IMG/VR virus record: IMGVR_UViG_3300008261_000042
Reading direction: 5' to 3' (one strand)
Source: a virus
Length of the DNA stretch: 64,000 nt
Part shown: piece by piece, positions 1,921-25,441 of the stretch
Layout of the letters: each line of letters opens with the position of its first letter
How positions within the stretch are numbered: the first letter of the stretch is position 1
Notes under the pieces: generated by a model
Seen by the model: the letters and a program-made list of their open reading frames with translations, nothing else
Database searches by the model: none
What the model was told of the DNA's origin: nothing
Made by a program: the position numbers and the translations under genes

Positions 1921-1922
1921 TG

Positions 1923-4900: not shown

Positions 4901-7900
4901 GTATCTATTTGTAGATGTATTAGCAAACGGTGCTTCTGGCACTTCATTAGATGCTGCTTATCTTATTGCTAGAAATAGAGATTTTATTGCTGATGAAGCA
5001 TACGGAAAAACTAAAGCACTATATCCATCATTGAATCTTTCAAATATCAATGAAAGAAAGTGCCGTAGAGATATTAATTTTATTATTAGTGGATTAATAA
5101 GAGACATAATTCTTGGTGGTAATGCTGGTATTGTAACTGCTGTAGAATCATATTTTAGTGGTTCTGTATTAACTGGCATTCCCGAGGCACAAAGAGATGA
5201 AACTATCTATGCTTTCAATCAAGTAAGAGATCTTTGTATCCTTGCTATGAGAAATTGGAAGACTGGAACTAATGGCACTGGATCTGTTTATACTCCATTG
5301 CATACACCAATTCCATTATTTACAGATAATACAATTTTAATTGATCCAAATGTAAATAAATGCGCCACTATAGTTTCAAATATCACAACATCATTTGCGT
5401 TGCTTGAAGATATTTTAGATGGAACTATTTCTCCTGGAGCAACAACAAAAACATTTGGTACATTATTTGATACTGTAAATATCGTAACTTACCCAGATAG
5501 CGTAATTTATGATGCAGATGGAGTTGTTTATACTCCACGTTCTGACTATGATGACTATCCAATTATTGAAGCGTCTCCATACACACAGAACGCATCTGTA
5601 ATTTCATTCCTTGGTGGCGGTGGTGCTCTTATTGATGGTTCCAAAGTCAAGCAACCAAACTGTCCTTTCCCTGGTCTAGAACTTGATGGTTCTGCAACCT
5701 TCCCGAATCAGGGTAAATCGATGGTTGCCGCTGCATTCACTATCGTATCTTTTGGTGGTACTGGTTATAAAATTATCAACGATGGTTATGTTCAGCTTGT
5801 TTCTGTATTCGTTATCTTCTGTGCTGATGGTGTTCTTGCAGAATCTGGTGGATATGCTTCAATTACTAACTCAGCTACAAACTTTGGTATCTTTGCGTTA
5901 AGAGCAAGAGGATACAATGATTTTGCTTACTCATTTGACGTTGGCACTATTACTAACGTGTCATCAACACCAACTGGAAGAACAATATTTACTGTTGATG
6001 GTCTTGGAAGAGAGCCACTTGAGCATTATGTTGTAAAAATTGATGGTTATGAAAATGTAAATCCAGATATTGAATACTTTATTGATACTGTTGGTGCAGT
6101 TACTGTTGGTCCTCCTTTCTCTGCTCAAATTACCATTGAGTCTGGATCTGGAGGAGGAGCAGAATTTAAGTCAATTTCTACTGGCCAAGCTGTATCATCT
6201 TCTACATTAACTGGGAAAACAATTAGATTACATAGACCATCTATTGTTAACTCTTCCTCACATACTTGGGAATTTGCTGGTTCTGGTACAAATTATAATG
6301 CTCTACCAGAAAATGGTGGTGTTAAAATTGAAGCATACGAACAAGTATCTCAAGACTACGGGCGTGTTTATGTTTCTGGTACTGATGAACTTGGTGACTT
6401 CAAGGTTGGTACATTTGCTCGTATTGAAAACAGAACTGGTAATATTACTTTCACTGGTACAGTTACCATTTCGGAAGTTGAATTCCTTAAGTTAAAAGGT
6501 GGCGACGTTGTTGTTACTGGTTTCGATGCTTCAAATACTCTTGGAGGTGCTAATTCAACTGACTCTAAACTACCAACTCAGAAGGCAGTTAGAGACTATA
6601 TTACTAATAACTTAGGCCCATACATCAACAAGCCATATTCAACAAATGCTGTTCCTAGAGCACTTGTTGAACTGACAGATTCTGGCAAGATTTCAATTGA
6701 TCAGATTCCACCACTAAGACCATTTAGTGTATTTACAGTTCCAGACCAAACATCTCGTCTTGCTATTGAAGGAGCACTTGCTGGTGATATTGCGATTCAG
6801 CAAGATACTTCAACTTCTTACATTCTCAATAATGATAATGGAAGTTTATTCGTATCATTTAATATAGATCCAACTTTACAATTTACTACTAATGATGTAT
6901 TTACTGGTAGTATTTCTGGAGGAAAAATTCAGGCAACTGAATATAGACAGGGAGTTGTTTATCAAATTAATTTAACTGACCCAGGATCTGGATATACTAC
7001 AACTCCAGTTATAACTATTACTGGAGGAAATCCACAAGCAGGTGCTATTCAAGCAGCAGCTACTTGTACAATTGCTAATGGTCAAGTTGTTACTGTTAAA
7101 ATAGTATCGTTTAATGGATTGATCGGCGGTAAAGGATACACAACTCCTCCAACTGTTACTTTCTCTGCTCCATCTGGTGCTGGCACACAAGCAACTGGTG
7201 TAGCATTAATTGAAAGTAGATTATACGGAGATATCGTCAATAATATTAAAATGGGAGAGGCTGATACAATTCAGTCAAGTGATATTCCAGCAGAAACTAT
7301 TGAAATCAATAGAGTTGTAAATACCTCTGCTTCTAATAATAATAACTGGGTATCGCTTTCAACAAATCAAATTGCTGCTTCTGATATCACATCTGGGGTT
7401 ATTGCTACTTCTAGACTTGCTAATAACTCAGATGCTGCAAACTCTTTCTCATTCTTGAGAGGTGACCAAGCATATGCTCCAGTAGTTCAATCAATTAAAG
7501 GAGCAGAGAATAGATATTTTGCCAAATTATATTCACAAGCATCTAGTGGTTCTTCTCAATTATTATTTACAACAAATTCAAATACTTTAGTTGGTCATAC
7601 AGTTGTAAATAATCTTACTGGTATTCAAGCAAATACTAGTATCAATGGTGTTATAACTTCTGGTGGTATTACCACAGTATCATTAAACAATCCATTAACA
7701 TCTACAATAGCAGCTGGAACTATTATTGAATTTGAAAGAGGTGCTTCACCACTTGTATTTGAATCTTCATTTACTCAAGGTGGATTTGTTGATAGTATTG
7801 TTATTGCTAGTGGTGGTTCTGGATTTACTAATGGTCAGTATTTTGATGTACCACTAACTGGTGGTTCTGGAACAGGTTTAAGATCTAATATTATTGTTTC

Positions 7901-10601
7901 TAATGGAATTGTAACAGAGCTTACTGTAACTAACTCTGGTGCTGGATATACTGCAGATTTTAATGTTTCTTCTGCTCCAGCAGAACTTGGTGGTGGATCT
8001 GGTTTAGTTTTAGCTGCAAAAGTCAGTACTGTAAACAGACAGTATGCTAATACCTCTCTCGATATTCAAAGAGTTACTGACCTCACAATTTCGGCAGATG
8101 AATTTGGTACTATTGGTGTTGCTAGATTCAGAAAATCTCAGTTCCTAATCGGTCAATCAGGTAATGGTTCGGTTGTTTTAAAGACTGGAGCAGATAGTGG
8201 ATTAGATGCTGACTTGTTAGATGGCGCTCAAGGTTCTTACTATCTTAATGCTTCTAACTTAAACGCTGGAACAGTATCAGTAGATAGACTTTCAGGTACT
8301 TACAATATTAGTATTTCTGGTCAGTCTGGTAATACAATCCGTGTTATCACAAATACTTCAAACCCAACTTCAAATCCATCTCCAAATGCATTCTCAACTG
8401 GTATTGTTGCAGATACAAGAAATAATGTTTCTAATGGATTATCTGATGGAGGAACCAAAAATTTAGTTCTTACATTAAGACCAGGAGGATCAGGATTTAC
8501 TGTAGATGGTGGTGTTAAACAATTAGCATTTACTGATAATGATAATATGTGGTTACGTGGTTCTGGAACCAACGTAGATGCATTTGGTTCTTGGGCTAAA
8601 GTTTGGACTTCCTTAAATGATGGCCCTGGAACTGGACTAGATGCTGATAGATTAGACAATAGACAAGGAACATGGTATCAAAATGCACTTAATGTTAATT
8701 TTGGAACTTTAAGTGATAATAGATTACCATCATATCAATCTAGAAAAGATTTCCAAGATTCAATTAGAGTATTATCATTTACTGGTCAACCAAGATATAG
8801 AATTTTCATCCCAGATGAAATTCTAACATCAACTCCATTCCTTCCTGGTTTAACAGTTAACTTATATAATTCAAATGATCAAGGTACTGGTGTAATTTCT
8901 ATTACTAATGTAGAAATTAATAATGATACAAATGATGTATTTAATAATTACACCATTATCACTGGTACTTTAACTACTGGTAATTTTGTAGGTGCTGTTA
9001 CTATTGGTACAGCAAGTAATAAAAAAGCATTTAGAGATTTTAGTATTGCTACTCTTGATGCAAATGCAGATGGTATACCAGACGGAACTTTTGTTGCTGC
9101 TGCTTTAGAAAGTGATGGAGGAACAGCTAATTTAAGACTTGGAAGAAAAGATGGACAAGCATCTTCTCCTGGATTATATTTTAACTCATCTCAATTAGCT
9201 GCATCTTACAATGCTGCTATCGTTGCTACAGGTGGTAATGGATCAACTGGAAGCGGAACTCTTGATGTCAAAGTTTTAAATGCTGACGGATTTACTTTAA
9301 ATGGAAATACTATTTGGAATGCTGGTAATGTAACATTCAATAGTACTAATGTAGTATCAACTGCTGTTATTCGTGATGCTTCTGGTAATTTTGCTGCGGG
9401 AACAATCACAGCAAATCTAACTGGTGCTGCTTCTCAAAACGTACTTAAAGCTGGCGATACCATGACTGGTTCGCTAACTCTTACTGGTGCTGGAAGCAAC
9501 TTCAGTGTATCTGGAACTTCTGGATTTGTTGGTAATGTTACTATGAGTGGTAACTTAACAGTTGATACAAATACTTTATTTGTTGACTCCACTAATGATA
9601 GTGTTGGAATTGGAACTATATCACAATCAAACCAATCAAAACTTCATGTACAAGGTAATCATGTCAGTGGTCATTCCATCATAAAAGTACAAAGGAATAA
9701 TTCTGATGTAAGTTCAATTGGATTTTATTCACAGTCTTCTGTGAGAGATGCTTTAATATATTCCAACAATAGTGCTCAATTATTCCTAGAAACTGCTGGT
9801 GCTGGAGCTAGTATCCTTCTCGCTCCAAATGGATCTACACGTTTAACTCTTCTTGCTACAGGGGAAGTTGGAGTAAGTAGATCCCCAGCATCTGGATATG
9901 CTTTAGATGTATCTGGTAAGGGTAGATTCTCTACATCTATGGAAATTCGTGATGCTTCTGATAATTCTGGAGCATCGATGTTATTCCTTGGTGCTAGTGG
10001 CTTTAGAAATTTCAGAATTGGCAATCAACTCAATGCTAATGATGTATTTGAAATTACTCCATCTACTGCAAACGGAGGAACAACTTGGGGTACAACTCCA
10101 GCATTAGCAATTCAAGGTGCGAATAATAGAGTTGCAATTAATACCTCAAACTTCTCTGGTACTGATACATCAGTAAGTCCAAATGTAACTAGAAATTATA
10201 ATTTAAATATCCAAGGTGATATCAATATCAATGGTAACGTATTCCAAAATAATGCAGCATTTGTAACTTCTAGATGGACACAAGCAACAAATCAACTAGA
10301 TATCTATAGATTATCTAAAGTTGGTATAAATAAAGCTAATCCAGATTATACATTACATGTTTCTGGAACTATAAATTTTGAAGGATCTTCTTTCACTTCA
10401 CAAGCAAATACAAGTGTTCTTTATGTAAATGGTGATAGACAATATATTGATACTTATGGGGTATTTAAAACAAATAGAAATACCGTAAATGAAGATATAA
10501 CTATTCCTTCAAATACAAATGCTATGAGTGCTGGTCCTATCACTATAAATAGTGGAAGGATAATAACAATTGCATCAGGAGCCTCATGGTCTGTAGTTTA
10601 A
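1971..10601 (+). CDS. very large tail fibre / virion structural protein (2876 aa)
   Basis: Repeated GSGYT..P.V motifs, two CBM-like W/F..N..Y..G..P.HT.G modules, KCRRDI repeats, LDADLLDG/LDADRLD fibre motifs, C-terminal ITIPSNTNAMSAGPITI...WSVV motif. Confidence 0.8.
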   Translation: MSFQFNSDREQIRAINPSLIGSNELTIRSGSGSNEKEILRAQLDANTTLPRVGINRTGNRIDRIQVTNGGSGYTLQPTVTLSAPPNGGIQALASAVISDGSVVAVLIDNIGGGYETAPSVTITGGNGNGATAVAYLDTVDFELDINGAIRTSTSIISDTARILNLDIDNFVTPDAQFRAPNLKTYLNSGGTPWSSNVIIQEGQYRYHNTNVYQALNTGTTGTTPPQHTDGIVLNGEVRFKHIGIRANDVNQPYFNEGGQSGVFPRSITPQFGDRSDKIATTEYVLNLATNDVGGRVYVSEQIGSDLNDGRSAVNPVRTIKKAAQIAWTTPGVKETIIVSGGDYVEDNPISLPPDASVVGDNLRLVIIRPNNPRKHIFKFGDKNYVTGVTYRDKIDSNGDPVATWDYAMVFDDKQRIEIDYTANGDFGTDFPVGHQIFGPEKFRSTYQTNTGLSQLTSGQRVKGVNTGAIGLLTDVTFNRITGADAYVNGSVDFSIISGSFNAGETFQYGGIGVVQFAQNTAYTLGQLVWTGDNVYTITVAGISGSSAPSHTSGAITNGSAEFTFLREAYEFISTDIRSIRAEGEVVFTDYDITTALPIVRIDFSKQGDPSVATGGFGDYGTPEDLGGIVFYTNALVGRQNTHNFKEGQEILISNLPTSSPDLSFLNGKQRIYKVLEDADGRTRRFVIPKKTTVTIDSNFDPGQFASVRSYSRSVTLSLLNSPNKFPVATPVARRYQDACLQIRNNIDFIADEVVRKINDQFKQEYFSVYGISGVEFKIYLGPSRFIHTYVSGGTVRFNNTNYNITNFVYDNVVTGEATITTSIPVASLTEDSIVKLSGIVVECDIDGVTTQKVYPSFNIPVSDSKCRRDIGHFLNAVCRDLEFGSNYNIINAAKKYISAGQIDLVDYEITQTIRAIEYARELAIYAMRKWRTGNGTPSDPVYVPQYSSLQRYTDPTVIDDISSPACANVASAINTLSYLFVDVLANGASGTSLDAAYLIARNRDFIADEAYGKTKALYPSLNLSNINERKCRRDINFIISGLIRDIILGGNAGIVTAVESYFSGSVLTGIPEAQRDETIYAFNQVRDLCILAMRNWKTGTNGTGSVYTPLHTPIPLFTDNTILIDPNVNKCATIVSNITTSFALLEDILDGTISPGATTKTFGTLFDTVNIVTYPDSVIYDADGVVYTPRSDYDDYPIIEASPYTQNASVISFLGGGGALIDGSKVKQPNCPFPGLELDGSATFPNQGKSMVAAAFTIVSFGGTGYKIINDGYVQLVSVFVIFCADGVLAESGGYASITNSATNFGIFALRARGYNDFAYSFDVGTITNVSSTPTGRTIFTVDGLGREPLEHYVVKIDGYENVNPDIEYFIDTVGAVTVGPPFSAQITIESGSGGGAEFKSISTGQAVSSSTLTGKTIRLHRPSIVNSSSHTWEFAGSGTNYNALPENGGVKIEAYEQVSQDYGRVYVSGTDELGDFKVGTFARIENRTGNITFTGTVTISEVEFLKLKGGDVVVTGFDASNTLGGANSTDSKLPTQKAVRDYITNNLGPYINKPYSTNAVPRALVELTDSGKISIDQIPPLRPFSVFTVPDQTSRLAIEGALAGDIAIQQDTSTSYILNNDNGSLFVSFNIDPTLQFTTNDVFTGSISGGKIQATEYRQGVVYQINLTDPGSGYTTTPVITITGGNPQAGAIQAAATCTIANGQVVTVKIVSFNGLIGGKGYTTPPTVTFSAPSGAGTQATGVALIESRLYGDIVNNIKMGEADTIQSSDIPAETIEINRVVNTSASNNNNWVSLSTNQIAASDITSGVIATSRLANNSDAANSFSFLRGDQAYAPVVQSIKGAENRYFAKLYSQASSGSSQLLFTTNSNTLVGHTVVNNLTGIQANTSINGVITSGGITTVSLNNPLTSTIAAGTIIEFERGASPLVFESSFTQGGFVDSIVIASGGSGFTNGQYFDVPLTGGSGTGLRSNIIVSNGIVTELTVTNSGAGYTADFNVSSAPAELGGGSGLVLAAKVSTVNRQYANTSLDIQRVTDLTISADEFGTIGVARFRKSQFLIGQSGNGSVVLKTGADSGLDADLLDGAQGSYYLNASNLNAGTVSVDRLSGTYNISISGQSGNTIRVITNTSNPTSNPSPNAFSTGIVADTRNNVSNGLSDGGTKNLVLTLRPGGSGFTVDGGVKQLAFTDNDNMWLRGSGTNVDAFGSWAKVWTSLNDGPGTGLDADRLDNRQGTWYQNALNVNFGTLSDNRLPSYQSRKDFQDSIRVLSFTGQPRYRIFIPDEILTSTPFLPGLTVNLYNSNDQGTGVISITNVEINNDTNDVFNNYTIITGTLTTGNFVGAVTIGTASNKKAFRDFSIATLDANADGIPDGTFVAAALESDGGTANLRLGRKDGQASSPGLYFNSSQLAASYNAAIVATGGNGSTGSGTLDVKVLNADGFTLNGNTIWNAGNVTFNSTNVVSTAVIRDASGNFAAGTITANLTGAASQNVLKAGDTMTGSLTLTGAGSNFSVSGTSGFVGNVTMSGNLTVDTNTLFVDSTNDSVGIGTISQSNQSKLHVQGNHVSGHSIIKVQRNNSDVSSIGFYSQSSVRDALIYSNNSAQLFLETAGAGASILLAPNGSTRLTLLATGEVGVSRSPASGYALDVSGKGRFSTSMEIRDASDNSGASMLFLGASGFRNFRIGNQLNANDVFEITPSTANGGTTWGTTPALAIQGANNRVAINTSNFSGTDTSVSPNVTRNYNLNIQGDININGNVFQNNAAFVTSRWTQATNQLDIYRLSKVGINKANPDYTLHVSGTINFEGSSFTSQANTSVLYVNGDRQYIDTYGVFKTNRNTVNEDITIPSNTNAMSAGPITINSGRIITIASGASWSVV

Positions 10602-10614
10602 TTTATATAGAAAA

Positions 10615-11364
10615 ATGAGTAGCATATTTGTAAATACGATTCAAGCATCTACTGGGAATACCGTTACTGTTGCTTCTGGAGTAAGTCTTTCTTTAGGAGG
10701 AACGGTATTAAATAGTTCTTCTTTATTGCCAAATCCATCAGGTCAAGCTGGGAAAATTTTAAAATCAAATGGCTCTTCATTCATTTATGATGTTGCTGGA
10801 GTAAAACAAGTTTTAGTTTATACTTCAAATGGAAGTTATACGCCATCTAGTGGAACTAGACTAGTATACGTTAGATTAGTTGGAGCTGGTGGAGGTGGTT
10901 CTGGTTATGGAGAATCTGGAGGTTCTGGTGGTTACGCAGAAGGATTTGTAGACATGACTGGAGTAAATAATGTAAATATTACTATAGGCACTGGAGGAAC
11001 TGGGTCATATTATTCTGGTGGTGCTGGTGGAGGAACTACCACATCATTTGGTTCTTATATGAGTGCTACGGGAGGAAATGGTGCAAATACTTCTCACCAA
11101 CATTGTGGTGGTCTTCCTGGAGTTGGATCTGGAGGACAATTAGCAATTTATGGTGGTGGTGGCACTGGTCATGGATACAATGGTAGAGGTGGAGGAAATT
11201 ATTTCGGGGGAGCTGGTGCTGCTGGTCATCCACAAGGCGGAAACTTTAATCAAAATCATAACAGCCATCAAATCCCAGGAGTTGGTGGTATAAATGGCTG
11301 GGCAACTAGTTATCCTGGCAACACTGGGGGTAACGGTATGGTAGTAATCTGGGAGTACTCATAA
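10615..11364 (+). CDS. glycine-rich tail-tip/adhesin-like protein, paralog 1
   Basis: Poly-Gly segments, HQHCGGLPGVG and GHPQGG motifs shared with the next two ORFs; follows the fibre gene. Confidence 0.7.
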   Translation: MSSIFVNTIQASTGNTVTVASGVSLSLGGTVLNSSSLLPNPSGQAGKILKSNGSSFIYDVAGVKQVLVYTSNGSYTPSSGTRLVYVRLVGAGGGGSGYGESGGSGGYAEGFVDMTGVNNVNITIGTGGTGSYYSGGAGGGTTTSFGSYMSATGGNGANTSHQHCGGLPGVGSGGQLAIYGGGGTGHGYNGRGGGNYFGGAGAAGHPQGGNFNQNHNSHQIPGVGGINGWATSYPGNTGGNGMVVIWEYS

Positions 11365-12636
11365 TGTCAATATTAAAAGTAAACGAAATAAGACCACAAT
11401 CTGGAACAACAATTACTATTCCTTCTGGACACCAATTAAGTCTAGCAGGAACTATTGTAAATTCAAATTCATTTCCTCCAAGTTTTTCTGGGCAAGCAGG
11501 AAAATTTTTACAATCTGATGGAACTAATTTAAACTGGCAAAGTTTAGGACCAGTTGCTATTAGAACATTTACCGCAAATGGAACTTGGACGAAACCAGCT
11601 GGAGTAACTAAAATTCTTGTTCGTGTACAAGGTGGTGGAGGATCTGCATCTGGCGTAGGAGAAGGTGGAGGAGGTGGAGGATTTTCCGAAAAATTTATTG
11701 ATGTTACTTCGGTCTCAAGTGTAAATGTCACCGTTGGTCAAGGATCCACTGCTAGTACGTATTATGCAAATACTGCTGGAGCAGGAACGGCATCTTCGTT
11801 CGGTAGTTATGTAACTGCTACTGGAGGAAATGGAGGAAATCAATCACATCAACATTGTGGTGGTCTTCCTGGCGTTGGGTCAGGAGGAGATTTAAATCTT
11901 TATGGTGGAGGTGGATCTGGGCACATGTATTGGTCTGGACCTCCAGGAGGAAATTCTTTTTATGGCGGTGCTGGAGCTTCTGGTCATCCACAAGGTGGAG
12001 ATTATGCACATAATCATTCATCTCATGCAGCATTTGGTTGTGGGGGAACTGCTGGTTATCACACAGAAAGAAGAGGTGCTAATGGAATGCCTGGAGTAGT
12101 AGTCGTATACGAATTTGTATAACCATGTCAACACTAAACGTAAATAACATAGAATCTTCTAGTGGTACTACTATTTTAATACCATCTGGAAATAGTTTAT
12201 CCTTAGCTGGAACTGTAGTAAATTCATCTACTCTTCCACCAAATCCATCAGGACAAACAAATCAAGCTTTATATACAAATGGTTCCGCTGTTTCTTTTAA
12301 TGTTACAGGACCAAGAAGTATCCAAACATTTACTAGCAGTGGAACTTGGACAAAGCCAAGTGGCATTAGTAAAATATGGGTAATGTTATGTGGGGGTGGA
12401 GGTGCAGCATCTGCTCACTCAGAATCTGGAGGTGCTGGAGGATATTGTGAGAAACTAATCGATGTTAGTTCAGTATCATCTGTTCAAGTTACGATTGGAG
12501 ATGGCTCTACTTCATGGACATATTATTCTGGTGCTGCAGGAGGAGGTGGAACTAGTTCTTTTGGTACTTATATGAGTGCGACAGGAGGTAGAGGCGCAAA
12601 TACTTCTCACCAACATTGCGGTGGTCTTCCTGGAGT
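11083..12636 (+). repeat. dispersed direct repeat within the three Gly-rich paralogs
   Basis: 41-nt gcaaatacttctcaccaacattg(t/c)ggtggtcttcctggagt at 11083-11123 and 12596-12636 (1 mismatch); 23-nt core also at 11850-11872. Confidence 0.9.
11364..12122 (+). CDS. glycine-rich tail-tip/adhesin-like protein, paralog 2
   Basis: Same architecture (MSILKVNEI...GTWTKP...HQHCGGLPGVG...GHPQGG...VVVYEF); TAATG overlap with paralog 1. Confidence 0.7.
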   Translation: MSILKVNEIRPQSGTTITIPSGHQLSLAGTIVNSNSFPPSFSGQAGKFLQSDGTNLNWQSLGPVAIRTFTANGTWTKPAGVTKILVRVQGGGGSASGVGEGGGGGGFSEKFIDVTSVSSVNVTVGQGSTASTYYANTAGAGTASSFGSYVTATGGNGGNQSHQHCGGLPGVGSGGDLNLYGGGGSGHMYWSGPPGGNSFYGGAGASGHPQGGDYAHNHSSHAAFGCGGTAGYHTERRGANGMPGVVVVYEFV

Positions 12637-12886
12637 AGGTACTGGCGGAGACTTGAATGTTTATGGTGGTGGTGGCACGGGTCATATGTCATGGGCATGT
12701 ATGAAAGGTGGTTCATCTTATTTTGGAGGAGCTGGAGTAAGTGGCCATCCCCAAGGAGGTAATTTTGCTCATAGTTATTGGGATAGATCAGCTCCTGGTT
12801 GTGGAGGAACTGCTGGGTATGATAATAACTCAACATTAGGAGCTTATGGAAGAGGTGGATTGTGTATTATCTACGAATATGCGTAA
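12125..12886 (+). CDS. glycine-rich tail-tip/adhesin-like protein, paralog 3
   Basis: Same architecture (MSTLNVNNI...GTWTKP...HQHCGGLPGVG...GHPQGG...IIYEY). Confidence 0.7.
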   Translation: MSTLNVNNIESSSGTTILIPSGNSLSLAGTVVNSSTLPPNPSGQTNQALYTNGSAVSFNVTGPRSIQTFTSSGTWTKPSGISKIWVMLCGGGGAASAHSESGGAGGYCEKLIDVSSVSSVQVTIGDGSTSWTYYSGAAGGGGTSSFGTYMSATGGRGANTSHQHCGGLPGVGTGGDLNVYGGGGTGHMSWACMKGGSSYFGGAGVSGHPQGGNFAHSYWDRSAPGCGGTAGYDNNSTLGAYGRGGLCIIYEYA

Positions 12887-12893
12887 ATAAATA
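12887..12893 (+). promoter_or_regulatory. late promoter (ATAAATA) upstream of the chaperone/halogenase/oxygenase run
   Basis: ATAAATA followed by CAGGAG RBS and ATG at 12921. Confidence 0.6.
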
Positions 12894-12920
12894 GTTTATA
12901 TAAACAGGAGATTTACAATA

Positions 12921-13382
12921 ATGAAAAGGGTTTTACTTGATTTTAGAGGAGTTATTAACGATGTTGTTGAGGTTGGATCTGAATTTGAAATTTATGATGG
13001 TCCAGACACAACAATTAAATGGGTTTTATGTCCACATGATGGAGTAGACGGCACTTGGCATTGTCAAGATGGTGAATGGATTTCTCCAGATAGAAAAAAA
13101 GATGTAAATTATGATATGCAAAGAAAAATTGCATACGGTACATTAGAAGAACAATTGGGAATGCTTTATCATGATATAAAATCTGGCAATTTACAAGATG
13201 GCGAATGGATTAGAATGCAAGATAATGTAAAATCTGCTATTATCTCACAAAGACAATATGAATCAGATCCAGCTAATATTGAAGGAAAGGTGGATCTAAA
13301 GTATCATACAGAAACAGATCCTGCATGGAATCATTTACCAGCAGAAGAAATTATTCCCCCATCATTTGATCACTTAAAATAA
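12921..13382 (+). CDS. putative tail-fibre assembly/chaperone-like protein
   Basis: RKIAYGTLEEQLGMLYHDI...W...VKS motif of small proteins that follow marine phage fibre genes; strong RBS. Confidence 0.5.
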   Translation: MKRVLLDFRGVINDVVEVGSEFEIYDGPDTTIKWVLCPHDGVDGTWHCQDGEWISPDRKKDVNYDMQRKIAYGTLEEQLGMLYHDIKSGNLQDGEWIRMQDNVKSAIISQRQYESDPANIEGKVDLKYHTETDPAWNHLPAEEIIPPSFDHLK

Positions 13383-13398
13383 TAATTAAATTATAATC

Positions 13399-14985
13399 AT
13401 GAAAATAAATTCAATATGCATCGTCGGAGGTGGCTCCAGTGGATGGATGGCAGCGGCTGCAATTGCCGTTAATTTACCAAATATTAAGTTAACTGTTATA
13501 GAACCAACTGATATTCCCATCGTTGGAGTTGGAGAATCAACATTAGGTCACATCAATCGTTATTTGCATTGTATTGGATTGGGAGGTAAAGATAAAGAAT
13601 GGATGCCACAATGTGAAGCTTCTTATAAAGTTTCTATTCAATTTTCCGATTTTAAACAAAAAGGACATGTATTTCAGTATCCATTTGGAAAGCATGATTA
13701 TACAAATAACAAAACTCCAAATGATTGGGCATATCTAAAAAATTTAATTCCAGAATTTAATGACACTTATTCAGAATTTTATAATCCAATTACGTATCTA
13801 GCAAATACAAATAAGATGGTTTCTGATAACTCTATTATTAGAAACTTTAATTTTACTATGGATACTGCGTATCATTTTAATGCTACTCAGTTTGGTCAAT
13901 ATTTGAAAAATAATATTTGTATCCCAAAAGGAGTTACTGTAATAAGAGATAGTATCGAAGATGTAGTTATAAATGAAGATGGAGAGATTGAATACCTAGT
14001 AGCAAAATTAACTCCAAGAATGAAATTAAAATATGATTTGTATATTGATTGCACTGGATTCAAATCATTGATCCTAGAAAAGAAAATGGGATCAAAATTT
14101 ATAAGTTTTAATGATGTACTATTAAATGATACTGCATTAGCAACTAGAATCCCATATATTGATATAGAAAAAGAACTAACTAATGTTACAGACTGCTGTG
14201 CATTAAAAAATGGATGGGTTTGGAATATTCCATTGTGGAGTAGAATTGGAACTGGATATTGTTATTCTAGTAAATTTACTACTAAAGAAAATGCAGAAAA
14301 AGAATTTAGAGAACATCTAGCAAAAATTGATAAGAAAAGAGCTGAAGAAGCAGAGTTATTTACAATTAATATTAGACATGGTAAACGTGAAAAAGCTTGG
14401 GTAAAAAATTGTTTAGGTATTGGTCTTTCTTACGGATTTTTAGAGCCACTAGAATCTACTGGATTATTAACAACACATGAAAATGTTTTGCGATTAGTTG
14501 ATACACTACAAAAAAGAGAAGGTTATGTAACAAAATTAGATGTTGATGGTTATAACCATGCAGTAGATTATGATTTAGAATCATTTAAAGATTTTATTGT
14601 TATGCACTATGTGCTTTCACAAAGAGATGATAGTGATTATTGGAAATATATCAAATATGAAATGGATGTAGTTCCGCCAGAAATGATTACTGATAGACTA
14701 GTAACAAGTCCAAGACTTTATAGAGAATTTTTACATGATAGTTATAGAAGTCATAATTTTAGTGACTTAGATGGCATTCTTTATATTGCTCATGGAATGG
14801 ACTATCTTCCTGTAGGAAAAACTCAAACTGAATATAGATTTTCGGAAAATGGTTATTTTAATAAAGATCAATTGATAAAAGATGTAAAAATTCCACATGA
14901 TAGGTATAAAAAACAAGTACTACGTCATCTGGATAAATGCCCGTCTACATACAAATTTTTGAAGGACAACATTTACAATGCTTAA
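13399..14985 (+). CDS. prnA: flavin-dependent (tryptophan-type) halogenase, PrnA-like
   Basis: GGGSSG FAD motif, GVGEST, ASYK (catalytic Lys position), GWVWNIP (WxWxIP), FLEPLESTG; 528 aa. Confidence 0.9.
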   Translation: MKINSICIVGGGSSGWMAAAAIAVNLPNIKLTVIEPTDIPIVGVGESTLGHINRYLHCIGLGGKDKEWMPQCEASYKVSIQFSDFKQKGHVFQYPFGKHDYTNNKTPNDWAYLKNLIPEFNDTYSEFYNPITYLANTNKMVSDNSIIRNFNFTMDTAYHFNATQFGQYLKNNICIPKGVTVIRDSIEDVVINEDGEIEYLVAKLTPRMKLKYDLYIDCTGFKSLILEKKMGSKFISFNDVLLNDTALATRIPYIDIEKELTNVTDCCALKNGWVWNIPLWSRIGTGYCYSSKFTTKENAEKEFREHLAKIDKKRAEEAELFTINIRHGKREKAWVKNCLGIGLSYGFLEPLESTGLLTTHENVLRLVDTLQKREGYVTKLDVDGYNHAVDYDLESFKDFIVMHYVLSQRDDSDYWKYIKYEMDVVPPEMITDRLVTSPRLYREFLHDSYRSHNFSDLDGILYIAHGMDYLPVGKTQTEYRFSENGYFNKDQLIKDVKIPHDRYKKQVLRHLDKCPSTYKFLKDNIYNA

Positions 14986-15784
14986 TAATTTTTTTAAAAA
15001 GAAATCTCCTACAATAAGATTTTTTTCTCTTACCCCAGGAGTAAATACTTTATATCCAATTATAAAATCTAATAAATTAAATCGTGAATGGGTAACAGAA
15101 GAAAAAATTGATTATGAAAATAGAAAATCTAAATGTCCATTTGGATTTTTATCAACACAAGGAATTGATCGTGTTAGTAGTATTGGAAAATGCCCAGCAA
15201 TTAGTGGAATAATTGGAGCTGGATTTACAATAAGAGCACCAGCAGATTTTGTTGTGATGACAAATGGAGATAAAACAACGCTCGATTTCAAATACAAAAA
15301 TATTGTTCCTCATATTGAATATGTAACAAAGCACGAAAAAGAAGTATCAAGTTGGTTATTAGATTCTTCTAAAGATAATACTCTAAATCAGGTTTTAAAA
15401 GTAAATACTCCATGGAGAATTACTTGCGATTCTGATGATATTATTTTTCTAGTAACAAAAGTTCCATTCGTCAAAGAAGATAGATTCACAGCTGTTACTG
15501 GAATTTTAGATCCAAAAACAGCATATGAAATAAATATACAACTTTTTTGGCACGTACTAAATGGAGAAGAAGTTATAAAAGCTGGCACACCCTTATGTAA
15601 TTACATTCCAATTTCTAGATCTTTATTGCAAAATATTTCTTTTGTTTCTGAAGATGCTGAAGAAAGAGATTATCTTGTCGAAAGAGAAATGCTATTTTCT
15701 TATGAACATGTATTTTCAAATTCAAACACTTTGAAAGATAAAGTATCTAGAGTTGTAAAAATATTAAAAAAATATTATGGTTGA
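14978..15784 (+). CDS. hypothetical protein (KCPAI...IKAGTPL family often found beside phage oxygenases)
   Basis: 268-aa ORF overlapping both neighbours. Confidence 0.55.
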   Translation: MLNNFFKKKSPTIRFFSLTPGVNTLYPIIKSNKLNREWVTEEKIDYENRKSKCPFGFLSTQGIDRVSSIGKCPAISGIIGAGFTIRAPADFVVMTNGDKTTLDFKYKNIVPHIEYVTKHEKEVSSWLLDSSKDNTLNQVLKVNTPWRITCDSDDIIFLVTKVPFVKEDRFTAVTGILDPKTAYEINIQLFWHVLNGEEVIKAGTPLCNYIPISRSLLQNISFVSEDAEERDYLVEREMLFSYEHVFSNSNTLKDKVSRVVKILKKYYG

Positions 15785-16370
15785 ATTATTTCCTATAAAA
15801 ATTTACAAATCTTCAATTGTTCCATCTAGTAGTGACGACAAGATTTGTGAAGATATCTTAAATGATCTTTTTTCAAAATCAACAGAAAATTATTGGGCAG
15901 GAGAAAGTGGATTTTCTACTGGAGAGTTTTCACTTTCTCTACATCAATATAAAGAATTTAATTGGTTATTTGATTCTCTAGTTTCTCATTTAGGTGCATA
16001 CTGGGATGAATTATCTTATGGAAATATACCTGTTTATTTGAGAGATAGTTGGGCAAATTTGCATTACTCTAATCACGAAACAGAAGAGCATTCACATTCT
16101 GATGGATTACTAGGAAATTCAATAATATCTGGAGTTTTTTATTTTAGAAAACCAGAAAATGAATCTAACATAATTTTTTGCAACCCATTAGATTATATAC
16201 TAAGATTACAACCATATAAAGATTTAAAAGGTATAAAAACCATTGGAGAAGAAATAAAAACAAATCAATATGATTTTTTACTTTTCCCTTCTTGGTTGCG
16301 TCATAGAGTACCAGCATTCAAATCAAATTCAAAAAGAATAGCTATATCGTTTAACTATGCAAGAGTATGA
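15777..16370 (+). CDS. putative 2OG-Fe(II) oxygenase (TIGR02466-like)
   Basis: W.N...HSH...SGVFY...FPSWLRHRV...RIAISFN. Confidence 0.8.
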   Translation: MVELFPIKIYKSSIVPSSSDDKICEDILNDLFSKSTENYWAGESGFSTGEFSLSLHQYKEFNWLFDSLVSHLGAYWDELSYGNIPVYLRDSWANLHYSNHETEEHSHSDGLLGNSIISGVFYFRKPENESNIIFCNPLDYILRLQPYKDLKGIKTIGEEIKTNQYDFLLFPSWLRHRVPAFKSNSKRIAISFNYARV

Positions 16371-17136
16371 TATAAATGATTTTAGAAAAATGTCTATCTC
16401 TTCAGTTTACTTTAATGATGAGATTAAAATAAAATCAATTAAAAATTTAGAATATGAATACATTAAATTAGATAAAAATGTAGGATATTGGATTACCGAT
16501 TGTCCATTTGTAGATGGATCTTTTATAAAATATATGGAATTTGTTAAATCAAATCCTATATGGAGAATGAATAACGAATACGATTTGGAAGATACTAATC
16601 CATTTGCAACAATTCATCTACCAGATTTTTCAACTAGACCATTGTTTAATTTATTATATCAATTTTACTCTTCTACTATTGGTTATAATAAAGATGTTTC
16701 GGTAAATGATTGGGGAAATATTTATTTTAAAGAGCACTCACGTCCTATAAAAAGATGGAGGCTTCCTCATATGGATTATGTTTCTGGTTTGGTAGCTAAT
16801 CTTTGGTTTACTAATCATGATATAAATTCTACAGGAACTAATTTATATTTTTATAAAGGAGTGACTCATGGAATTAATTATGATTTCCAAGTAAATGAAA
16901 GTCATCCATTATATAAAGAATGGCACAATATGAAATCTAAAGATCGTGATATTAAATGGAATAATTTTTCTATCGATGAAGCTAACTATTGGGGATTTGA
17001 ATTGCTTGGCAAAGCTCCAACTAAATATAGTTGTATGACAATGTACTATCCAAATATTTCTCATGCTCCATTTATTGAAGATGACATAAAATTTAGATGG
17101 TCACATACTTTTAGTTGTTTTTCTAATTTTTTATGA
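16357..17136 (+). CDS. putative 2OG-Fe(II) oxygenase-like protein
   Basis: PHMD...GTNLY...HAP...RWS (HxD...H...R triad). Confidence 0.6.
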   Translation: MQEYDINDFRKMSISSVYFNDEIKIKSIKNLEYEYIKLDKNVGYWITDCPFVDGSFIKYMEFVKSNPIWRMNNEYDLEDTNPFATIHLPDFSTRPLFNLLYQFYSSTIGYNKDVSVNDWGNIYFKEHSRPIKRWRLPHMDYVSGLVANLWFTNHDINSTGTNLYFYKGVTHGINYDFQVNESHPLYKEWHNMKSKDRDIKWNNFSIDEANYWGFELLGKAPTKYSCMTMYYPNISHAPFIEDDIKFRWSHTFSCFSNFL

Positions 17137-17723
17137 TTAATGTTGAGCATATTTTTCCTGTTCCTATTTGGTCAATTGATTTAGATCTTAATTTAAACGA
17201 GATAGAAACTTATATAAGATCTATTAAAAATGTATCTAATGGGCGAGCTATTTCAAATGTAAATGGATGGCAATCAGATTCATTTGATACAAAACAAGAA
17301 ACAATTCCAGAGATAAAAAGGTTATTTTATCTCATACAAAAATATTTAAAATTATGTTATGCAGAATATGGTAGTGCAGAAAACCCAGAAATTGACAATT
17401 ATTGGTTTAATATAAATTATCCAGGTTCTTCAAATTTAGATCATCTACATTCTAGATGTTTTTTATCTGGTTGCTTTTATGTAAATACATCTCTTAACTG
17501 TGGGGATATTGTTTTTAAAAGATCTTCATTAGAAGATTATATAATTTCTTCTAATGTTGGATTATCTAATACTAAACTATCGGCATCTCATTGGAAATAT
17601 TCCACGAAGCCAAATCAAGTATTAATATTTCCTTCATGGATTTCTCATTTTGTCGAAGAAAATAAATCATCAGAAGATAGAATTTCAATTGCTTTTAATA
17701 CGAGGTCTTTAAAATGGGAGTAA
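17133..17723 (+). CDS. putative 2OG-Fe(II) oxygenase (TIGR02466-like)
   Basis: SNVNGWQS, WFNIN, HLH, SGCFY, FPSWISHFV, RISIAFN. Confidence 0.85.
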   Translation: MINVEHIFPVPIWSIDLDLNLNEIETYIRSIKNVSNGRAISNVNGWQSDSFDTKQETIPEIKRLFYLIQKYLKLCYAEYGSAENPEIDNYWFNINYPGSSNLDHLHSRCFLSGCFYVNTSLNCGDIVFKRSSLEDYIISSNVGLSNTKLSASHWKYSTKPNQVLIFPSWISHFVEENKSSEDRISIAFNTRSLKWE

Positions 17724-18328
17724 AAATTATTGATAATTTATTACCAAAAAAATTAGAAAACGATATTATGGATCTTACCATGGGAACATCATTTCCATGG
17801 TTTTATATAAATGATATAACTAGAAATGTGAGCGGTGAAGGAATTTATGCTCAGCCAGGATTTCATAACACTCCATTTATACATTATGCTCCATCAAATC
17901 CATTTTTTGATTATTTCAAATCTTTATCTTTTATTATAGAAGATCAAATAAATTGGAAACATGATTTAAATTTGTTTAGATTAAGATGCGGATTAAATTA
18001 TCCGTTAGTACATCAAAATAAAAAATTTAGTTGGGAATGGAATTATCCTCATATTGATCATAATCCAGATTTTGTTACTGGAAAAACTTTTACTTGTTTA
18101 TACTATGTTAATGATTCTGACGGAGATACATTTGTTTTCAATGAAGTAGAGGAATCAAAAAATTACACCGTGATGGAAAGGATATCTCCTAAAAAAGGAA
18201 GAATTGCAATATTTGATGGAGAGCATTATCACGCAAGTTCTTCTCCTAGACTATCAAATTCCAGAATTGTTTTAGCTTTTAATTATCATGATAAAAAATA
18301 TTTTACGAGATCTGAAGAAACAAATTAA
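17714..18328 (+). CDS. 2OG-Fe(II) oxygenase
   Basis: PHID...LYYVNDSDGDT...FDGEHYHAS...RIVLAFN. Confidence 0.8.
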   Translation: MGVKIIDNLLPKKLENDIMDLTMGTSFPWFYINDITRNVSGEGIYAQPGFHNTPFIHYAPSNPFFDYFKSLSFIIEDQINWKHDLNLFRLRCGLNYPLVHQNKKFSWEWNYPHIDHNPDFVTGKTFTCLYYVNDSDGDTFVFNEVEESKNYTVMERISPKKGRIAIFDGEHYHASSSPRLSNSRIVLAFNYHDKKYFTRSEETN

Positions 18329-18983
18329 ATTTGATGATCAATGTGTTGTTATAAAAGATTTTATTTCAAATCCAAATATATTAATTTCGTGGTATGACGT
18401 TGAAGAAGCTTTAAATTATAATTTATTTAAATTTGAAATTATACAAAATGGCAATAAATTACCTATACCAGAAATGAATTATTTTTGGTATTCAAAAATA
18501 ATTCAAGACAAAAAATACATTTATGATTTCATCATCAACGGTAATGCTTTTGTAATATTAGAATATAGAAATAAAGAAATCAACAATTTACTACAGCAAA
18601 TAGAAAATTTTTTTGATGTCTTATGTGATGCTCATATTTATGGTGGGATATCAGAATATTCAAAATCATTTACACCGCATGTTGATATTCCTCCAAATTT
18701 TATTTTACAAATAGAAGGAACTACGACATGGAAAATATATAAAAATTGTGCATCTGATTTATTTTCACAAGAAGATATAAATTCTTCAGTAGACAAAAAT
18801 ATTTTAGAAATAGATAAAGAAGTGATATTATCACCTGGAGATATTCTTTACATACCATCAAGAAGATTTCATGAGGCTATACCAACGGGGAAAAGACTTT
18901 CTATAAGTATTCCATGTAGACCAAAAAAATACGATAGAAGTATGTTTAATTTAGATAGAAATTACTATGAAATTACAAGTTAA
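18288..18983 (+). CDS. JmjC/cupin-4 (YcfD/ROX-like) oxygenase
   Basis: SFTPHVD...FILQIEG...W...LSPGDILYIP..RFHEA...RLSISI. Confidence 0.8.
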   Translation: MIKNILRDLKKQIKFDDQCVVIKDFISNPNILISWYDVEEALNYNLFKFEIIQNGNKLPIPEMNYFWYSKIIQDKKYIYDFIINGNAFVILEYRNKEINNLLQQIENFFDVLCDAHIYGGISEYSKSFTPHVDIPPNFILQIEGTTTWKIYKNCASDLFSQEDINSSVDKNILEIDKEVILSPGDILYIPSRRFHEAIPTGKRLSISIPCRPKKYDRSMFNLDRNYYEITS

Positions 18984-19638
18984 TGATTGGGATGAGCCAA
19001 TGCTAGAATCAGGCAAAGATTTTCCTCCTATCTTAAAATTGGTAAAAAATGCAATACCAAAAGAAGTATTAACAATCATGGATATCGAATTTACAATGAT
19101 GCGTGATTGTATGAAAACTTTAAACAGTACTAATGGATTTAATGATCCATCAGTTCACAATTCTTTTTCTTGGTATTCTCCAATATGTTTTGAAACTTTA
19201 AGTGTTTATTTACAGCCATTGGTAGAAAAAGAAGTTGGAGAAAAATTGTTTCCTACGTATTCATATGCTAGAATTTATATGAATAATAGTGTGTTGACTA
19301 AGCATACTGATAGAAAAAGTTCTCAATTATCAGCAAGTTGTTGTATAAGAAAGGACGCAGATTGGCCACTTTGTTTTAAAACAAAAGAAGGTATTGAAGA
19401 ATTTGATATGGATCCAGGAGATATAGTAATTTCTTCAGGAACAAAAATTCCTCATTGGAGAGAACCATATACAGGTAATGAACATATGCAAGCATTTTTA
19501 CAATATGTTTATGTCGATGGAAAATATTCTCATTTAAAATATGACACTAGACCATGTTTAGCATCTGATTATGAATTAACTGCTCCTTATATAAAAGAAG
19601 AAGTTAATCGAAGATATAATCATCCATACATTTCATAA
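18967..19638 (+). CDS. 2OG-Fe(II) oxygenase-like protein
   Basis: PTYSYARIY...LTKHTDR...PGD...PHWRE...QAFLQYV. Confidence 0.75.
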   Translation: MKLQVNDWDEPMLESGKDFPPILKLVKNAIPKEVLTIMDIEFTMMRDCMKTLNSTNGFNDPSVHNSFSWYSPICFETLSVYLQPLVEKEVGEKLFPTYSYARIYMNNSVLTKHTDRKSSQLSASCCIRKDADWPLCFKTKEGIEEFDMDPGDIVISSGTKIPHWREPYTGNEHMQAFLQYVYVDGKYSHLKYDTRPCLASDYELTAPYIKEEVNRRYNHPYIS

Positions 19639-19662
19639 ATATAGTAGAATTAATTTAGTATT

Positions 19663-19923
19663 ATGATTGAAGCAACCGAAAATAAAACATATACATTTGA
19701 AGAAATTTGGGAAAATTTTGCATCTCAATTAAATGAAGCGAGAATCCAATTGAATAATAAAGAAGAAGAAATTCAAGCAGAAGCTGCTCATATGACAAGA
19801 ATTGATCTTACTGAATTTAATGACTTAAGAACTGCTGTTATTAAATTAGAAGCAGCATTAGAAACTATGGATATTTTGAGAGTAAATTTATTCAACCAAG
19901 AATCATTGATTGTAAAACAATGA
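19663..19923 (+). CDS. small coiled-coil hypothetical protein
   Basis: 86-aa ORF preceded by late promoter ATAAATA at 19635-19641. Confidence 0.65.
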   Translation: MIEATENKTYTFEEIWENFASQLNEARIQLNNKEEEIQAEAAHMTRIDLTEFNDLRTAVIKLEAALETMDILRVNLFNQESLIVKQ

Positions 19924-19957
19924 TAAATAATCATACACATAATTATTATTGATCACT

Positions 19958-20140
19958 ATGGACACCGAACAACTTAAGAAAAATTTTGAAGATCAACTTG
20001 CTACTACAGAAAAGCAAATCGCCGAGCTGGAAGCAAATCTAGAAAAAGCAAAAGAGTATCGCCTTAAACTACAAGGCGGTCTAGAAACTCTAATTCTTCT
20101 GAATCCGCCAGAAGAATCTACAGAAGAAGTAGCAGAATAA
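19958..20140 (+). CDS. small coiled-coil hypothetical protein (likely ATG start 19958)
   Basis: Preceded by ATAAATA at 19923-19929; resembles the previous ORF (NF..QL...KL...LET). Confidence 0.7.
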   Translation: MDTEQLKKNFEDQLATTEKQIAELEANLEKAKEYRLKLQGGLETLILLNPPEESTEEVAE

Positions 20141-20145: not shown

Positions 20146-20181
20146 AAATCCCTATCTGATAAATACAGGTAGGGATTTTTT
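20146..20181 (+). terminator. intrinsic terminator whose loop is a late promoter
   Basis: AAATCCCTATCTG-ATAAATA-CAGGTAGGGATTT followed by T-run. Confidence 0.7.
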
Positions 20182-20193: not shown

Positions 20194-21024
20194 ATGGCAC
20201 AGCCATCTACAAGACAGGGACTAATTGATTATTGCAAAAGGCAATTAGGTGCTCCTGTGCTACAGATCAATATTGATGACGCTCAAGTTGGAGATGTCAT
20301 TGATGATGCTATTCAGTATTATCAGGAATGGCATTATGATGGTGTGGAAAGAATGTATCTCAAACATCAGGTAACAGCAGATGATGTTGCTAGATTTACT
20401 GCTTCTAATGAATTAAATAGCACAGCAGATCCTGATGCATCTACATGGGAGAATAGAAAAAACTTTATTGAAGTGCCAGATCATGTAATCGGTATTTCAA
20501 AAGTATTTGGTGTGTCATCTAATTGGGTTCGCAATGATTTGTTTGGTTTAAGCAACCAGTATTTCTTGATGGATGTATTTTCATTTTCATCTGGATTTGC
20601 TTTTGGTAATTTTGATATGACAAATTATTATATGATTCGTCAGTATTTTGAAACTCTTGATATGGTTGTCAATACTGGTGCATTAGTTGAGTATAGATTT
20701 AACAAAAGACAGGATCGTTTGTTTATTGATATTGATGTAAACAGATTGACAGAAGGAAATTATATTTTAATTGAATGTTATAGAGCATTGAATCCAGATG
20801 AATTTAATCAAATCTATAATGATAGTTTTGTGAAGAAGTATGCTACTGCTCTCATGAAGAGGCAGTGGGGACAGAACTTAATTAAGTATAATGCTGTCCA
20901 ACTTCCTGGTGGTATCACACTAAATGGAAGACAGATTTATGAAGATGCGTTGGCGGAACTTGCTCAATTAGAAGCTGATATGCCAACCAAGTATACACTC
21001 CCACCAATGGATATGATCGGATAA
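20194..21024 (+). CDS. gp13: neck protein gp13
   Basis: LIDYCKRQLGAPVLQINID...QWGQNLIKY...LPGGITLNG; T4-like gene order. Confidence 0.92.
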   Translation: MAQPSTRQGLIDYCKRQLGAPVLQINIDDAQVGDVIDDAIQYYQEWHYDGVERMYLKHQVTADDVARFTASNELNSTADPDASTWENRKNFIEVPDHVIGISKVFGVSSNWVRNDLFGLSNQYFLMDVFSFSSGFAFGNFDMTNYYMIRQYFETLDMVVNTGALVEYRFNKRQDRLFIDIDVNRLTEGNYILIECYRALNPDEFNQIYNDSFVKKYATALMKRQWGQNLIKYNAVQLPGGITLNGRQIYEDALAELAQLEADMPTKYTLPPMDMIG

Positions 21025-21025
21025 G

Positions 21026-22713: not shown

Positions 22714-22719
22714 CAACAT

Positions 22720-23145: not shown

Positions 23146-23154
23146 AAATAAAAA

Positions 23155-25166: not shown

Positions 25167-25441
25167 TGAAAAGTTTTAAACAACTAAGACAAGAGCTTAA
25201 TGAAGCTGCTTGGACAAGAAAAGAAGGACAAAATAAAAATGGCGGTCTTAATGAAAAAGGTCGCAAATCTTACGAGAAACAAAATCCTGGAAGTGATCTA
25301 AAAGCACCGTCAAAGGATAAAGATAATCCTCGTAGAAAATCTTTTTGTGCCAGAATGAAAGGAATGCGTAAGAGACAAAAAGATAGCAACAACACTGGAG
25401 AAGATCGTCTATCTAAATCTCTTCGTGCTTGGAACTGTTAG
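25166..25441 (+). CDS. basic hypothetical protein, candidate internal head protein (true start probably ATG 25166)
   Basis: MKSFKQLRQELNE leader; GGLNEKGR...RRKSFCARMKG...SLRAWNC. Confidence 0.7.
   Translation: MKSFKQLRQELNEAAWTRKEGQNKNGGLNEKGRKSYEKQNPGSDLKAPSKDKDNPRRKSFCARMKGMRKRQKDSNNTGEDRLSKSLRAWNC

Follow-up and report, generated by a model that had tools for sequence, protein, structure and literature searches.

We describe here a run of genes in a 64,000-nucleotide (nt) stretch of viral DNA (IMG/VR virus record IMGVR_UViG_3300008261_000042; hereafter the window) in which a flavin-dependent halogenase and six predicted iron- and 2-oxoglutarate-dependent (Fe/2OG) oxygenases are encoded close behind three predicted tail-fibre-tip proteins. 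The source is a T4-like cyanophage, whose placement in the family Kyanoviridae is judged from its relatives. A megablast search of the region against 50,697 phage records found no close DNA match, and protein-level searches were therefore used instead. The genes all lie on the plus strand and are named below, where necessary, by their start coordinates. A giant tail-fibre or structural gene (1971-10601) is followed by three genes for Gly-rich tip proteins (10615-11364, 11364-12122 and 12125-12886), a late-promoter-like motif on the same strand (12887-12893), an open reading frame (ORF) for a small conserved protein (12921-13382), the halogenase gene (13399-14985), a gene for a dUTPase-fold protein (14978-15784) and the six oxygenase-type genes (15777-16370, 16357-17136, 17133-17723, 17714-18328, 18288-18983 and 18967-19638). 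These genes are tightly packed. The small ORF ends 16 nt before the halogenase gene, and from 13399 to 19638 each gene overlaps the next, by 8, 8, 14, 4, 10, 41 and 17 nt in succession; when recomputed, the ORF coordinates, strand and overlaps from 13399 onward were as an earlier first-pass annotation of this DNA had given them.

The fibre protein (2876 amino acids (aa)) matches phrog_5342, a tail fiber protein family, with an E-value (E) of 0 and is 55-62% identical to the fibres of phages S-RIM44 and Sf-CH3; it has no Pfam match. Its gene opens the 'host recognition cluster' of the phage. The three tip proteins that come next, of 249, 252 and 253 aa, are paralogues with 21-27% Gly (26.5% in the first). 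The Gly_rich_2 family (PF21722) has a cut-off of 24.3 bits, above which lie the second and third proteins (44.6 and 32.8 bits); the first, which also matches phrog_863, scores 24.1 bits and so falls 0.2 bits under. Protein 10615 aligns with the C-terminal end of two tail-fibre families, PHROGs 21412 and 6202, and protein 11364 matches positions 1260-1451 of 1452 in phrog_21412. Taken together, the domain and the matches to distal fibre ends identify the three as predicted fibre-tip adhesins of the Gly_rich_2 type. Within the family the side chains of Y134, N159, Q163, H164 and H187 are invariant and H208 is kept in at least 90% of sequences. Sequence and profile searches of solved structures returned nothing significant for the tip proteins.

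The small protein encoded at 12921 (153 aa) consists of a folded N-terminal part and a C-terminal tail with a P-x-W motif, the Trp of which is W136 in the window. It belongs to a highly conserved family with five invariant Trp residues. We found no match to it in Pfam or NCBIfam, so that phrog_1787 is the only family assignment, and sequence and profile searches of solved structures gave nothing significant. An AlphaFold2 (AF2) model of the protein has a predicted local distance difference test score (pLDDT) of 91, and in it the tail is packed against the body at a pLDDT of about 89-95. Fold searches with this model were non-significant: Foldseek ranked first a fibre chaperone of Mu, 5yvq_B, at E 2.1, and VIA reached a Z of 4.4 at most. 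The label 'chaperone', which the first-pass annotation had attached to this ORF, is a guess and stands unverified, having neither a match to a chaperone family of the Tfa/Caudo_TAP type nor a significant fold match behind it. Fused or longer forms of the small ORF did not turn up, which is weak evidence.

The tail of the small protein varies with the presence of the halogenase. Among isolates, all eight small-ORF copies that precede a halogenase bear a C-terminal extension of 40-60 aa with the P-x-W motif, whereas the copies of S-CAM8, S-H25 and S-B64, which have a tip gene before them and no halogenase after them, end just short of the extension. The sole environmental copy without a halogenase likewise has a short end that lacks Trp. 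Over all loci, a tail that contains Trp and measures 25 aa or more is present in 67/69 halogenase-linked copies (P-x-W in 58 of those 67) compared with 0/4 halogenase-free copies, a distribution with a chance probability of ~1e-5 by a hand calculation that assumes independent loci, which these are not. In S-CAM8 (NC_021530.1, 33198-43326) six oxygenase-type genes lie upstream of a gene for a 247-aa 'tail fiber protein', there is no halogenase, and the small-ORF homologue is short (117 aa) and has no Trp tail.

The halogenase (528 aa) is a clear member of its family. It scores 347 bits against PF04820 (E 1.7e-103), for which the cut-off is 21, and aligns with VirX1 of cyanophage Syn10, an iodinating enzyme of known structure (PDB 6qgm), at E 6e-144 over residues 2-527, with 44.6% identity by tblastn. 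Its catalytic motifs are intact: the flavin motif GxGxxG is present as GGGSSG at residues 10-15 and the WxWxIP motif as GWVWNIP, the Lys of YKVS aligns with VirX1 K79 (YKNS), and the EPLES segment with the active-site Glu is identical in the two proteins; the roles of these residues are taken from PMC8407142. The call of a PrnA-like halogenase in the first-pass annotation is borne out by both PF04820 and 6qgm, and on these data we would place the protein more narrowly, as a flavin-dependent Trp-type halogenase of the VirX1 clade. The activity of VirX1 has been measured, whereas that of the window enzyme is predicted from its sequence. No Flavin_Reduct gene was found in five complete related phage genomes, and it follows that the halogenase would need a host reductase. 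In a FastTree phylogeny calculated without an outgroup, the halogenases that are linked to tip genes form three deep clades and the S-B64-type clade is unlinked.

The protein encoded at 14978 (268 aa) had been left as the one unassigned ORF among the enzymes by the first-pass annotation. It is indeed not an oxygenase, a possibility that we considered and rejected given its dUTPase fold and the lack of a conserved His pair, but it can now be assigned a dUTPase-like fold by model searches. Its AF2 model has a pLDDT of 91.8, Foldseek retrieves dUTPases at E 1e-4, and the top 11 VIA rows (Z 9.7-7.7) are all dUTPases. Across 52 family sequences C72 and D90 are invariant, a motif-3-like D178 is present in 85%, and an invariant KAGTPL (K201 in 49/52) falls at the place of motif 4, as judged from motif register without a residue-level alignment. 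A helical hairpin forms the C-terminus, and motif 5 of dUTPases is absent. The protein therefore lacks the full set of five motifs of a trimeric dUTPase enzyme, and it is the modelled fold alone that agrees with one. In S-WAM1 and P-RSM6 a homologue of a small helical protein that is encoded further downstream in the window (phrog_20247) stands in for the dUTPase-fold gene.

Three of the six oxygenases pass curated Pfam cut-offs. The proteins encoded at 15777 and 17133 are of the PF13759/TIGR02466 type (57.3 and 79.7 bits for the former, 70.4 and 87.2 bits for the latter) and share a family-invariant HxH..H..R motif. The prolyl-4-hydroxylase (P4H)-like protein 17714 scores 31 bits against PF13640, with a cut-off of 27, and has H113-x-D115 together with H172/H174. 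The HxD..H..R motif of this protein is also found in the enzyme at 18288 (231 aa), which matches JmjC_2 at 68.6 bits and has as its nearest solved chains MINA53 and NO66 (E 8e-7 to 5e-6), with the HxD and the distal His aligned. The likeness of 18288 to MINA53, NO66 and YcfD is confined to this JmjC core: the alignment to the 442-aa MINA53 spans residues 97-202, and the dimerisation and winged-helix domains that all three carry are missing from a protein of this length, which for that reason is not a full ROX-type protein. An earlier description of the enzyme as JmjC/YcfD-like consequently holds for the JmjC_2 core and fails for the ROX domain architecture; we refer to it as a minimal JmjC oxygenase related to MINA53 and NO66. 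These two proteins are histidyl hydroxylases that act on ribosomal proteins, and JmjC_2 and P4H relatives more generally are protein hydroxylases.

The remaining two oxygenase-type proteins, 16357 (259 aa) and 18967 (223 aa; phrog_2954), have no Pfam match, and sequence and profile searches of solved structures gave nothing significant for either. Both families nevertheless conserve the metal triad and basic residue HxD..H..R, as invariant H138-x-D140, H236 and R247 in 16357 and as invariant H113-x-D115, H163 and R165 in 18967, and both proteins align weakly with the PF13759 family profiles with these motifs correctly placed. The structural neighbours of 16357 in the Atlas are DUF6445 (TM 0.68-0.72), PhyH and PF13759. 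For 18967 there is a weak profile match to a Tet-like dioxygenase (E 0.16), and the nearest named Atlas clusters carry PF13640. The authors of the S-CREM1 study reached the same oxygenase call for these families with HHpred (PMC9964418). Based upon the invariant motifs, the weak profiles, the Atlas neighbours and the S-CREM1 annotation, we regard both proteins as probable Fe/2OG oxygenases, the former DUF6445-like. Where five 2OG-Fe(II) oxygenases had been counted besides the JmjC enzyme, three are therefore secured by Pfam (15777, 17133 and 17714) and two (16357 and 18967) are called from the conserved HxD..H..R without a Pfam match. Several of these families carry PHROG or GenBank names that are misnomers, namely 'DNA endonuclease V' for 17714, 'ferrochelatase' for 18967 and 'minor coat protein' for 16357. 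These names clash with the conserved HxD..H motifs and the oxygenase relatives, and they propagate through many cyanophage annotations.

The layout of the region fits that of a late unit. The T4-type late promoter is a TATAAATA-like -10 element, and AATAAATA lies 34 nt 5' of the start codon at 12921. The motif ATAAATA, which forms the core of the T4-type late promoter, occurs 27 times on the plus strand of the window and three times on the minus strand. Twelve of the 27 plus-strand copies fall 15-45 nt before an ORF start, compared with 3.2% of positions in such zones (P ~1e-11), and composition-matched 7-mers show no such placement. The next well-placed copies downstream are at 19635, 19923 and 20159, and another, at 15530, falls well within an ORF. 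Across 64 distinct loci, ATAAATA is found no more than 60 nt before the small ORF (28) or the last tip gene (17), that is in 45/64 in total, and it is depleted twofold inside the enzyme run, where 69% of gene junctions overlap; a median of 18 nt separates the small ORF from the last tip gene. The proposal that the motif at 12887 is the nearest upstream late-type signal is plausible: the motif is present, is enriched at such a distance and is kept in relatives. A second proposal, that the unit ends at a terminator at 20146, is upheld: an intrinsic terminator with a 13-bp stem and a T run (20146-20178, plus strand) closes it, and the hairpin is conserved in Sf-CH3 and S-RIM44. The loop of this hairpin holds the ATAAATA that precedes gp13, as it does in S-RIM44, such that terminator and late promoter share one element. 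A scan for sigma-70 promoters found 68 against 69.4 expected, a count at chance with which such a scan cannot discriminate, and internal promoters may exist. The terminator-consensus scan was also at chance overall (4 found against 4.4 expected), and it includes a hairpin with a 10-bp stem and a T-rich run at 17777-17801, inside the P4H-like ORF. The sequence evidence as a whole fits late co-transcription, and we infer that these genes are transcribed together late in infection and coupled in translation, as a single module within the host recognition cluster.

Linkage of the enzymes to the tip genes extends well beyond this phage. The order of tip genes, small ORF, one or more halogenases, dUTPase-fold or helical protein and oxygenases is kept in Sf-CH3, S-RIM44, Syn9/Syn10 and S-CREM1, and the same order from tips to oxygenases is found in P-TIM40, S-WAM1 and P-RSM6. 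These phages belong to several genera and differ in the genes that follow the module, which may be neck genes, small early-type ORFs or helicases. A tblastn search with tip protein 11364 retrieved 20 phage records, all of them phages with a linked halogenase, and one with the small ORF retrieved 25. We then surveyed IMG/VR with a tip-protein profile, which yielded 80 loci; counting those with enough flank, the small ORF follows the last tip gene in 67/71, a halogenase lies within 5 kb in 59/63 and at least one oxygenase is present in 52/56. Co-occurrence with tip genes in related genomes, which the first-pass annotation had set beforehand as one of the observations on which its idea would stand or fall, is accordingly strong in isolates and environmental contigs alike, and the linkage is near-obligate across many phages. 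The version in Sf-CH11 is rearranged: a run of P4H, 2OG oxygenase, halogenase and two further 2OG oxygenases lies between two divergent Gly_rich_2 proteins. The numbers of tip, halogenase and oxygenase genes also correlate across 18 loci, a correlation that we did not use because these loci are kin. Scanning bacterial genomes with the tip-protein profile returned one locus only (NZ_RMVE01000006.1, 98374-119174). This 188-kb record, filed under Nonlabens xiamenensis 1Q3, carries three tip genes, a small ORF, two halogenases, a dUTPase-fold gene and oxygenases, and it looks like a T4-like cyanophage genome that was co-assembled with the flavobacterium.

The enzyme array itself has been published. 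Iyer, Abhiman, de Souza and Aravind (2010; PMC2938197) described a dioxygenase-halogenase array in Syn9 that includes a dUTPase-fold protein with a conserved Cys. The array of Syn9/Syn10 (Syn9 gp41-gp54) contains a homologue of every array gene in the window, in the same order, and the likeness covers tandem distant Fe/2OG dioxygenases, a MINA/NO66-like JmjC protein, a Trp halogenase and the dUTPase-fold protein with its Cys. With its dioxygenase families (JmjC included), its halogenase and its dUTPase-fold protein with a conserved Cys, the window qualifies as a neighbourhood of the Syn9 type. It differs in that Syn9 has two halogenases and ten oxygenase-type genes, whereas the window has one and six, directly before gp13. 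The Gly-rich proteins of Syn9 are gp38 and gp39, and its small protein is gp40. In the passages of PMC2938197 that were examined, neither the Gly-rich tip genes nor the small ORF is tied to the array, and the linkage and the Trp tail go beyond the literature examined. The same paper discusses bacterial operons that combine dioxygenases with collagen-like or tail-collar proteins, for which a similar logic was proposed, with the co-encoded Gly-rich or fibre-like protein as substrate; these operons differ in having beta-hydroxylase/PhyH families and sulfotransferases and no flavin halogenase. Other papers treat the phage genes as auxiliary metabolic genes (AMGs) (PMC3037559, PMC2984593, PMC9964418), and those on P-HM2 and on metatranscriptomes do not mention the module genes. 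The slot that the module occupies, from the giant structural gene to the neck genes, is that of the host recognition cluster which Zaragoza-Solas et al. (2020; PMC7029224) described for cyano- and pelagimyophages and in which fibre genes are mixed with seemingly unrelated accessory genes. That region was described as non-syntenic and hypervariable, whereas the sub-module in the window keeps its order across genera and dozens of environmental contigs.

Given these data, it is plausible that the substrates of the enzymes are proteins of the module itself and not free metabolites, a reading to which we would give a probability of roughly 0.4. It draws on the linkage to the tip genes, the correlation between tail and halogenase, the late and coupled layout and the kinship of the JmjC and P4H-like enzymes with protein hydroxylases. 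It draws further on the large, open active site of VirX1, for which no natural substrate is known (PMC8407142), and on the lack of a precursor-making enzyme or exporter in the module. In the mechanism that we envisage, a host reductase would supply the halogenase with reduced flavin, and the enzyme would halogenate the Trp of the P-x-W motif in the C-terminal tail of the small protein. Residues of this protein and/or of the His/Tyr-bearing Gly-rich tips would be hydroxylated by the oxygenases, the JmjC and P4H-like enzymes among them, and the modified product would serve in the assembly of the fibre tip or in binding to the receptor. The first-pass annotation had proposed a system for decorating virion proteins, with the tips, or else host surface molecules, as targets. 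This idea is partly supported, in that the tip genes co-occur with the enzymes and late timing is plausible, but the tips appear less likely than the small protein to be the first target. The Trp-bearing tail of the small protein would instead be the best candidate substrate for the halogenase on sequence grounds, and the likeliest first target. A more general proposal, that VirX1-type halogenases have the adjacent P-x-W tail as a protein substrate and, with the oxygenases, generate a halogenated and hydroxylated receptor-binding component, is put forward only tentatively.

Several observations weigh against modification of the module's own proteins. The alignment of the tip family contains no invariant Trp. 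Supplement 3 of PMC3037559 has a column for proteomics, in which the Syn9 fibre is flagged as a virion protein and the Syn9 homologues of the tips, the small ORF and the dUTPase-fold protein are not, although for the tips this is weak evidence because Gly-rich proteins yield few tryptic peptides. The linkage is itself weakened by the fact that T4-like phages keep gene order well and that the slot is a known site of accessory-gene accumulation (PMC7029224), and the survey was seeded with tip proteins from linked clusters. Moreover, the linkage is not universal: in S-B64 a tip gene follows the fibre and the halogenase lies elsewhere, beside gp46, the S-MbCM6 halogenase lies beside psbA, and Syn30 has single oxygenases in its replication module, with all of these enzymes far from fibre genes and the two halogenases belonging to other clades. 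The correlation between tail and halogenase could stem from kinship, because the four halogenase-free lineages are also the most divergent. Finally, VirX1 halogenates many small aromatic compounds in vitro (PMC8407142), and PMC2938197 reads the Syn9 array as a system for the synthesis of halogenated secondary metabolites.

These last two points speak for a rival reading, in which the enzymes produce, within the infected cell, a small molecule or a non-ribosomal peptide-like metabolite that is halogenated and hydroxylated, with the fibre genes as mere neighbours co-inherited in a hypervariable slot. Such a pathway is a possibility to be taken seriously, if a somewhat doubtful one. Tandem distant dioxygenases and Trp halogenases are typical of secondary-metabolite clusters (PMC2938197), accessory genes are known to gather at this position, from the giant structural gene to the neck genes (PMC7029224), and related halogenases and single oxygenases do occur in replication or AMG regions. 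The module, however, contains no peptide synthetase, just as it contains no precursor-making enzyme or exporter, and the linkage of tips and small ORF to the enzymes outlasts rearrangement, the gain and loss of paralogues and a change of downstream neighbours. In addition, the Trp tail of the small ORF tracks the halogenase, and it would be odd for metabolic enzymes to stand behind a late promoter and to be coupled in translation to structural genes.

Peptide Trp is a known substrate of some flavin halogenases, an example being MibH in NAI-107. The small ORF could also be viewed as a ribosomal-peptide precursor, in which a folded recognition domain precedes a halogenated and hydroxylated C-terminal core that is released or displayed and need not be part of the virion. 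The confinement of the P-x-W tail to copies that precede a halogenase would agree with this, as would the position of the small ORF directly upstream of the halogenase with a 16-nt gap. We nevertheless consider it unlikely: no protease or exporter is encoded in the module, the tail is modelled as packed on the body with high pLDDT, and the N-terminal domain is kept beside tip genes in phages that have neither halogenase nor tail, from which its first role seems to be tip-linked. Least probable of all is late modification of host targets (ribosomal proteins, translation factors or envelope components) or of nucleic acids. In its favour, MINA53 and NO66, the nearest solved relatives of the JmjC enzyme, hydroxylate ribosomal proteins, the dUTPase fold is a hint that nucleotides may be bound, and older work suggested a part in DNA repair or in controlling the level of 2OG (PMC3037559). 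Against it, the additional domains of ribosomal oxygenases are missing from the JmjC enzyme, Pfam/NCBIfam-type scans of the window proteins found no AlkB-type or TET/JBP-type family above threshold, S-WAM1 and P-RSM6 have an unrelated helical protein in place of the dUTPase-fold gene, and the linkage to tip genes would be left unexplained.

VirX1 already serves as a biocatalyst, and the linkage and the Trp tail turn the question of its natural role into a direct experiment on the culturable phages Syn9, Syn10 and S-RIM44. To our knowledge, cyanophage halogenases and 2OG oxygenases have been listed as AMGs for twenty years with no substrate known. Should a component of the receptor-binding apparatus prove to be halogenated in the manner proposed, it would be the first halogenated virion-associated protein and a natural role could be named for a widespread family of marine viral enzymes; decoration of this apparatus would also give phages a new means of tuning host recognition. 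Otherwise, the module would be a conserved viral pathway for a halogenated product in abundant marine phototrophs.

Between the last oxygenase gene and the terminator the window encodes two small helical proteins of 86 and 63 aa (19663-20140; phrog_20247 and phrog_580), each behind its own ATAAATA (19635 and 19923, respectively), and the neck genes gp13, gp14 and gp15 come after the terminator. The host-recognition block shares one composition that is distinct from that of the core genes: GC content at third codon positions (GC3) is 0.11-0.16 in fibre, tips and enzymes alike (1411-19923), compared with 0.19-0.40 in the neck, sheath and terminase genes (20194-30313). We considered whether a dip in total GC marks the enzymes as a foreign island and rejected this, as the fibre and tip genes have the same GC3 as the enzymes; amino-acid make-up accounts for the dip. 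Lastly, residues 52-145 in the N-terminal part of the fibre match phrog_460, a head-closure or neck family, and an enlarged gp14 of Sf-CH3 (L001 19448-20569) contains a segment that is 35% identical to the fibre, which suggests that a neck protein and the fibre share a module.

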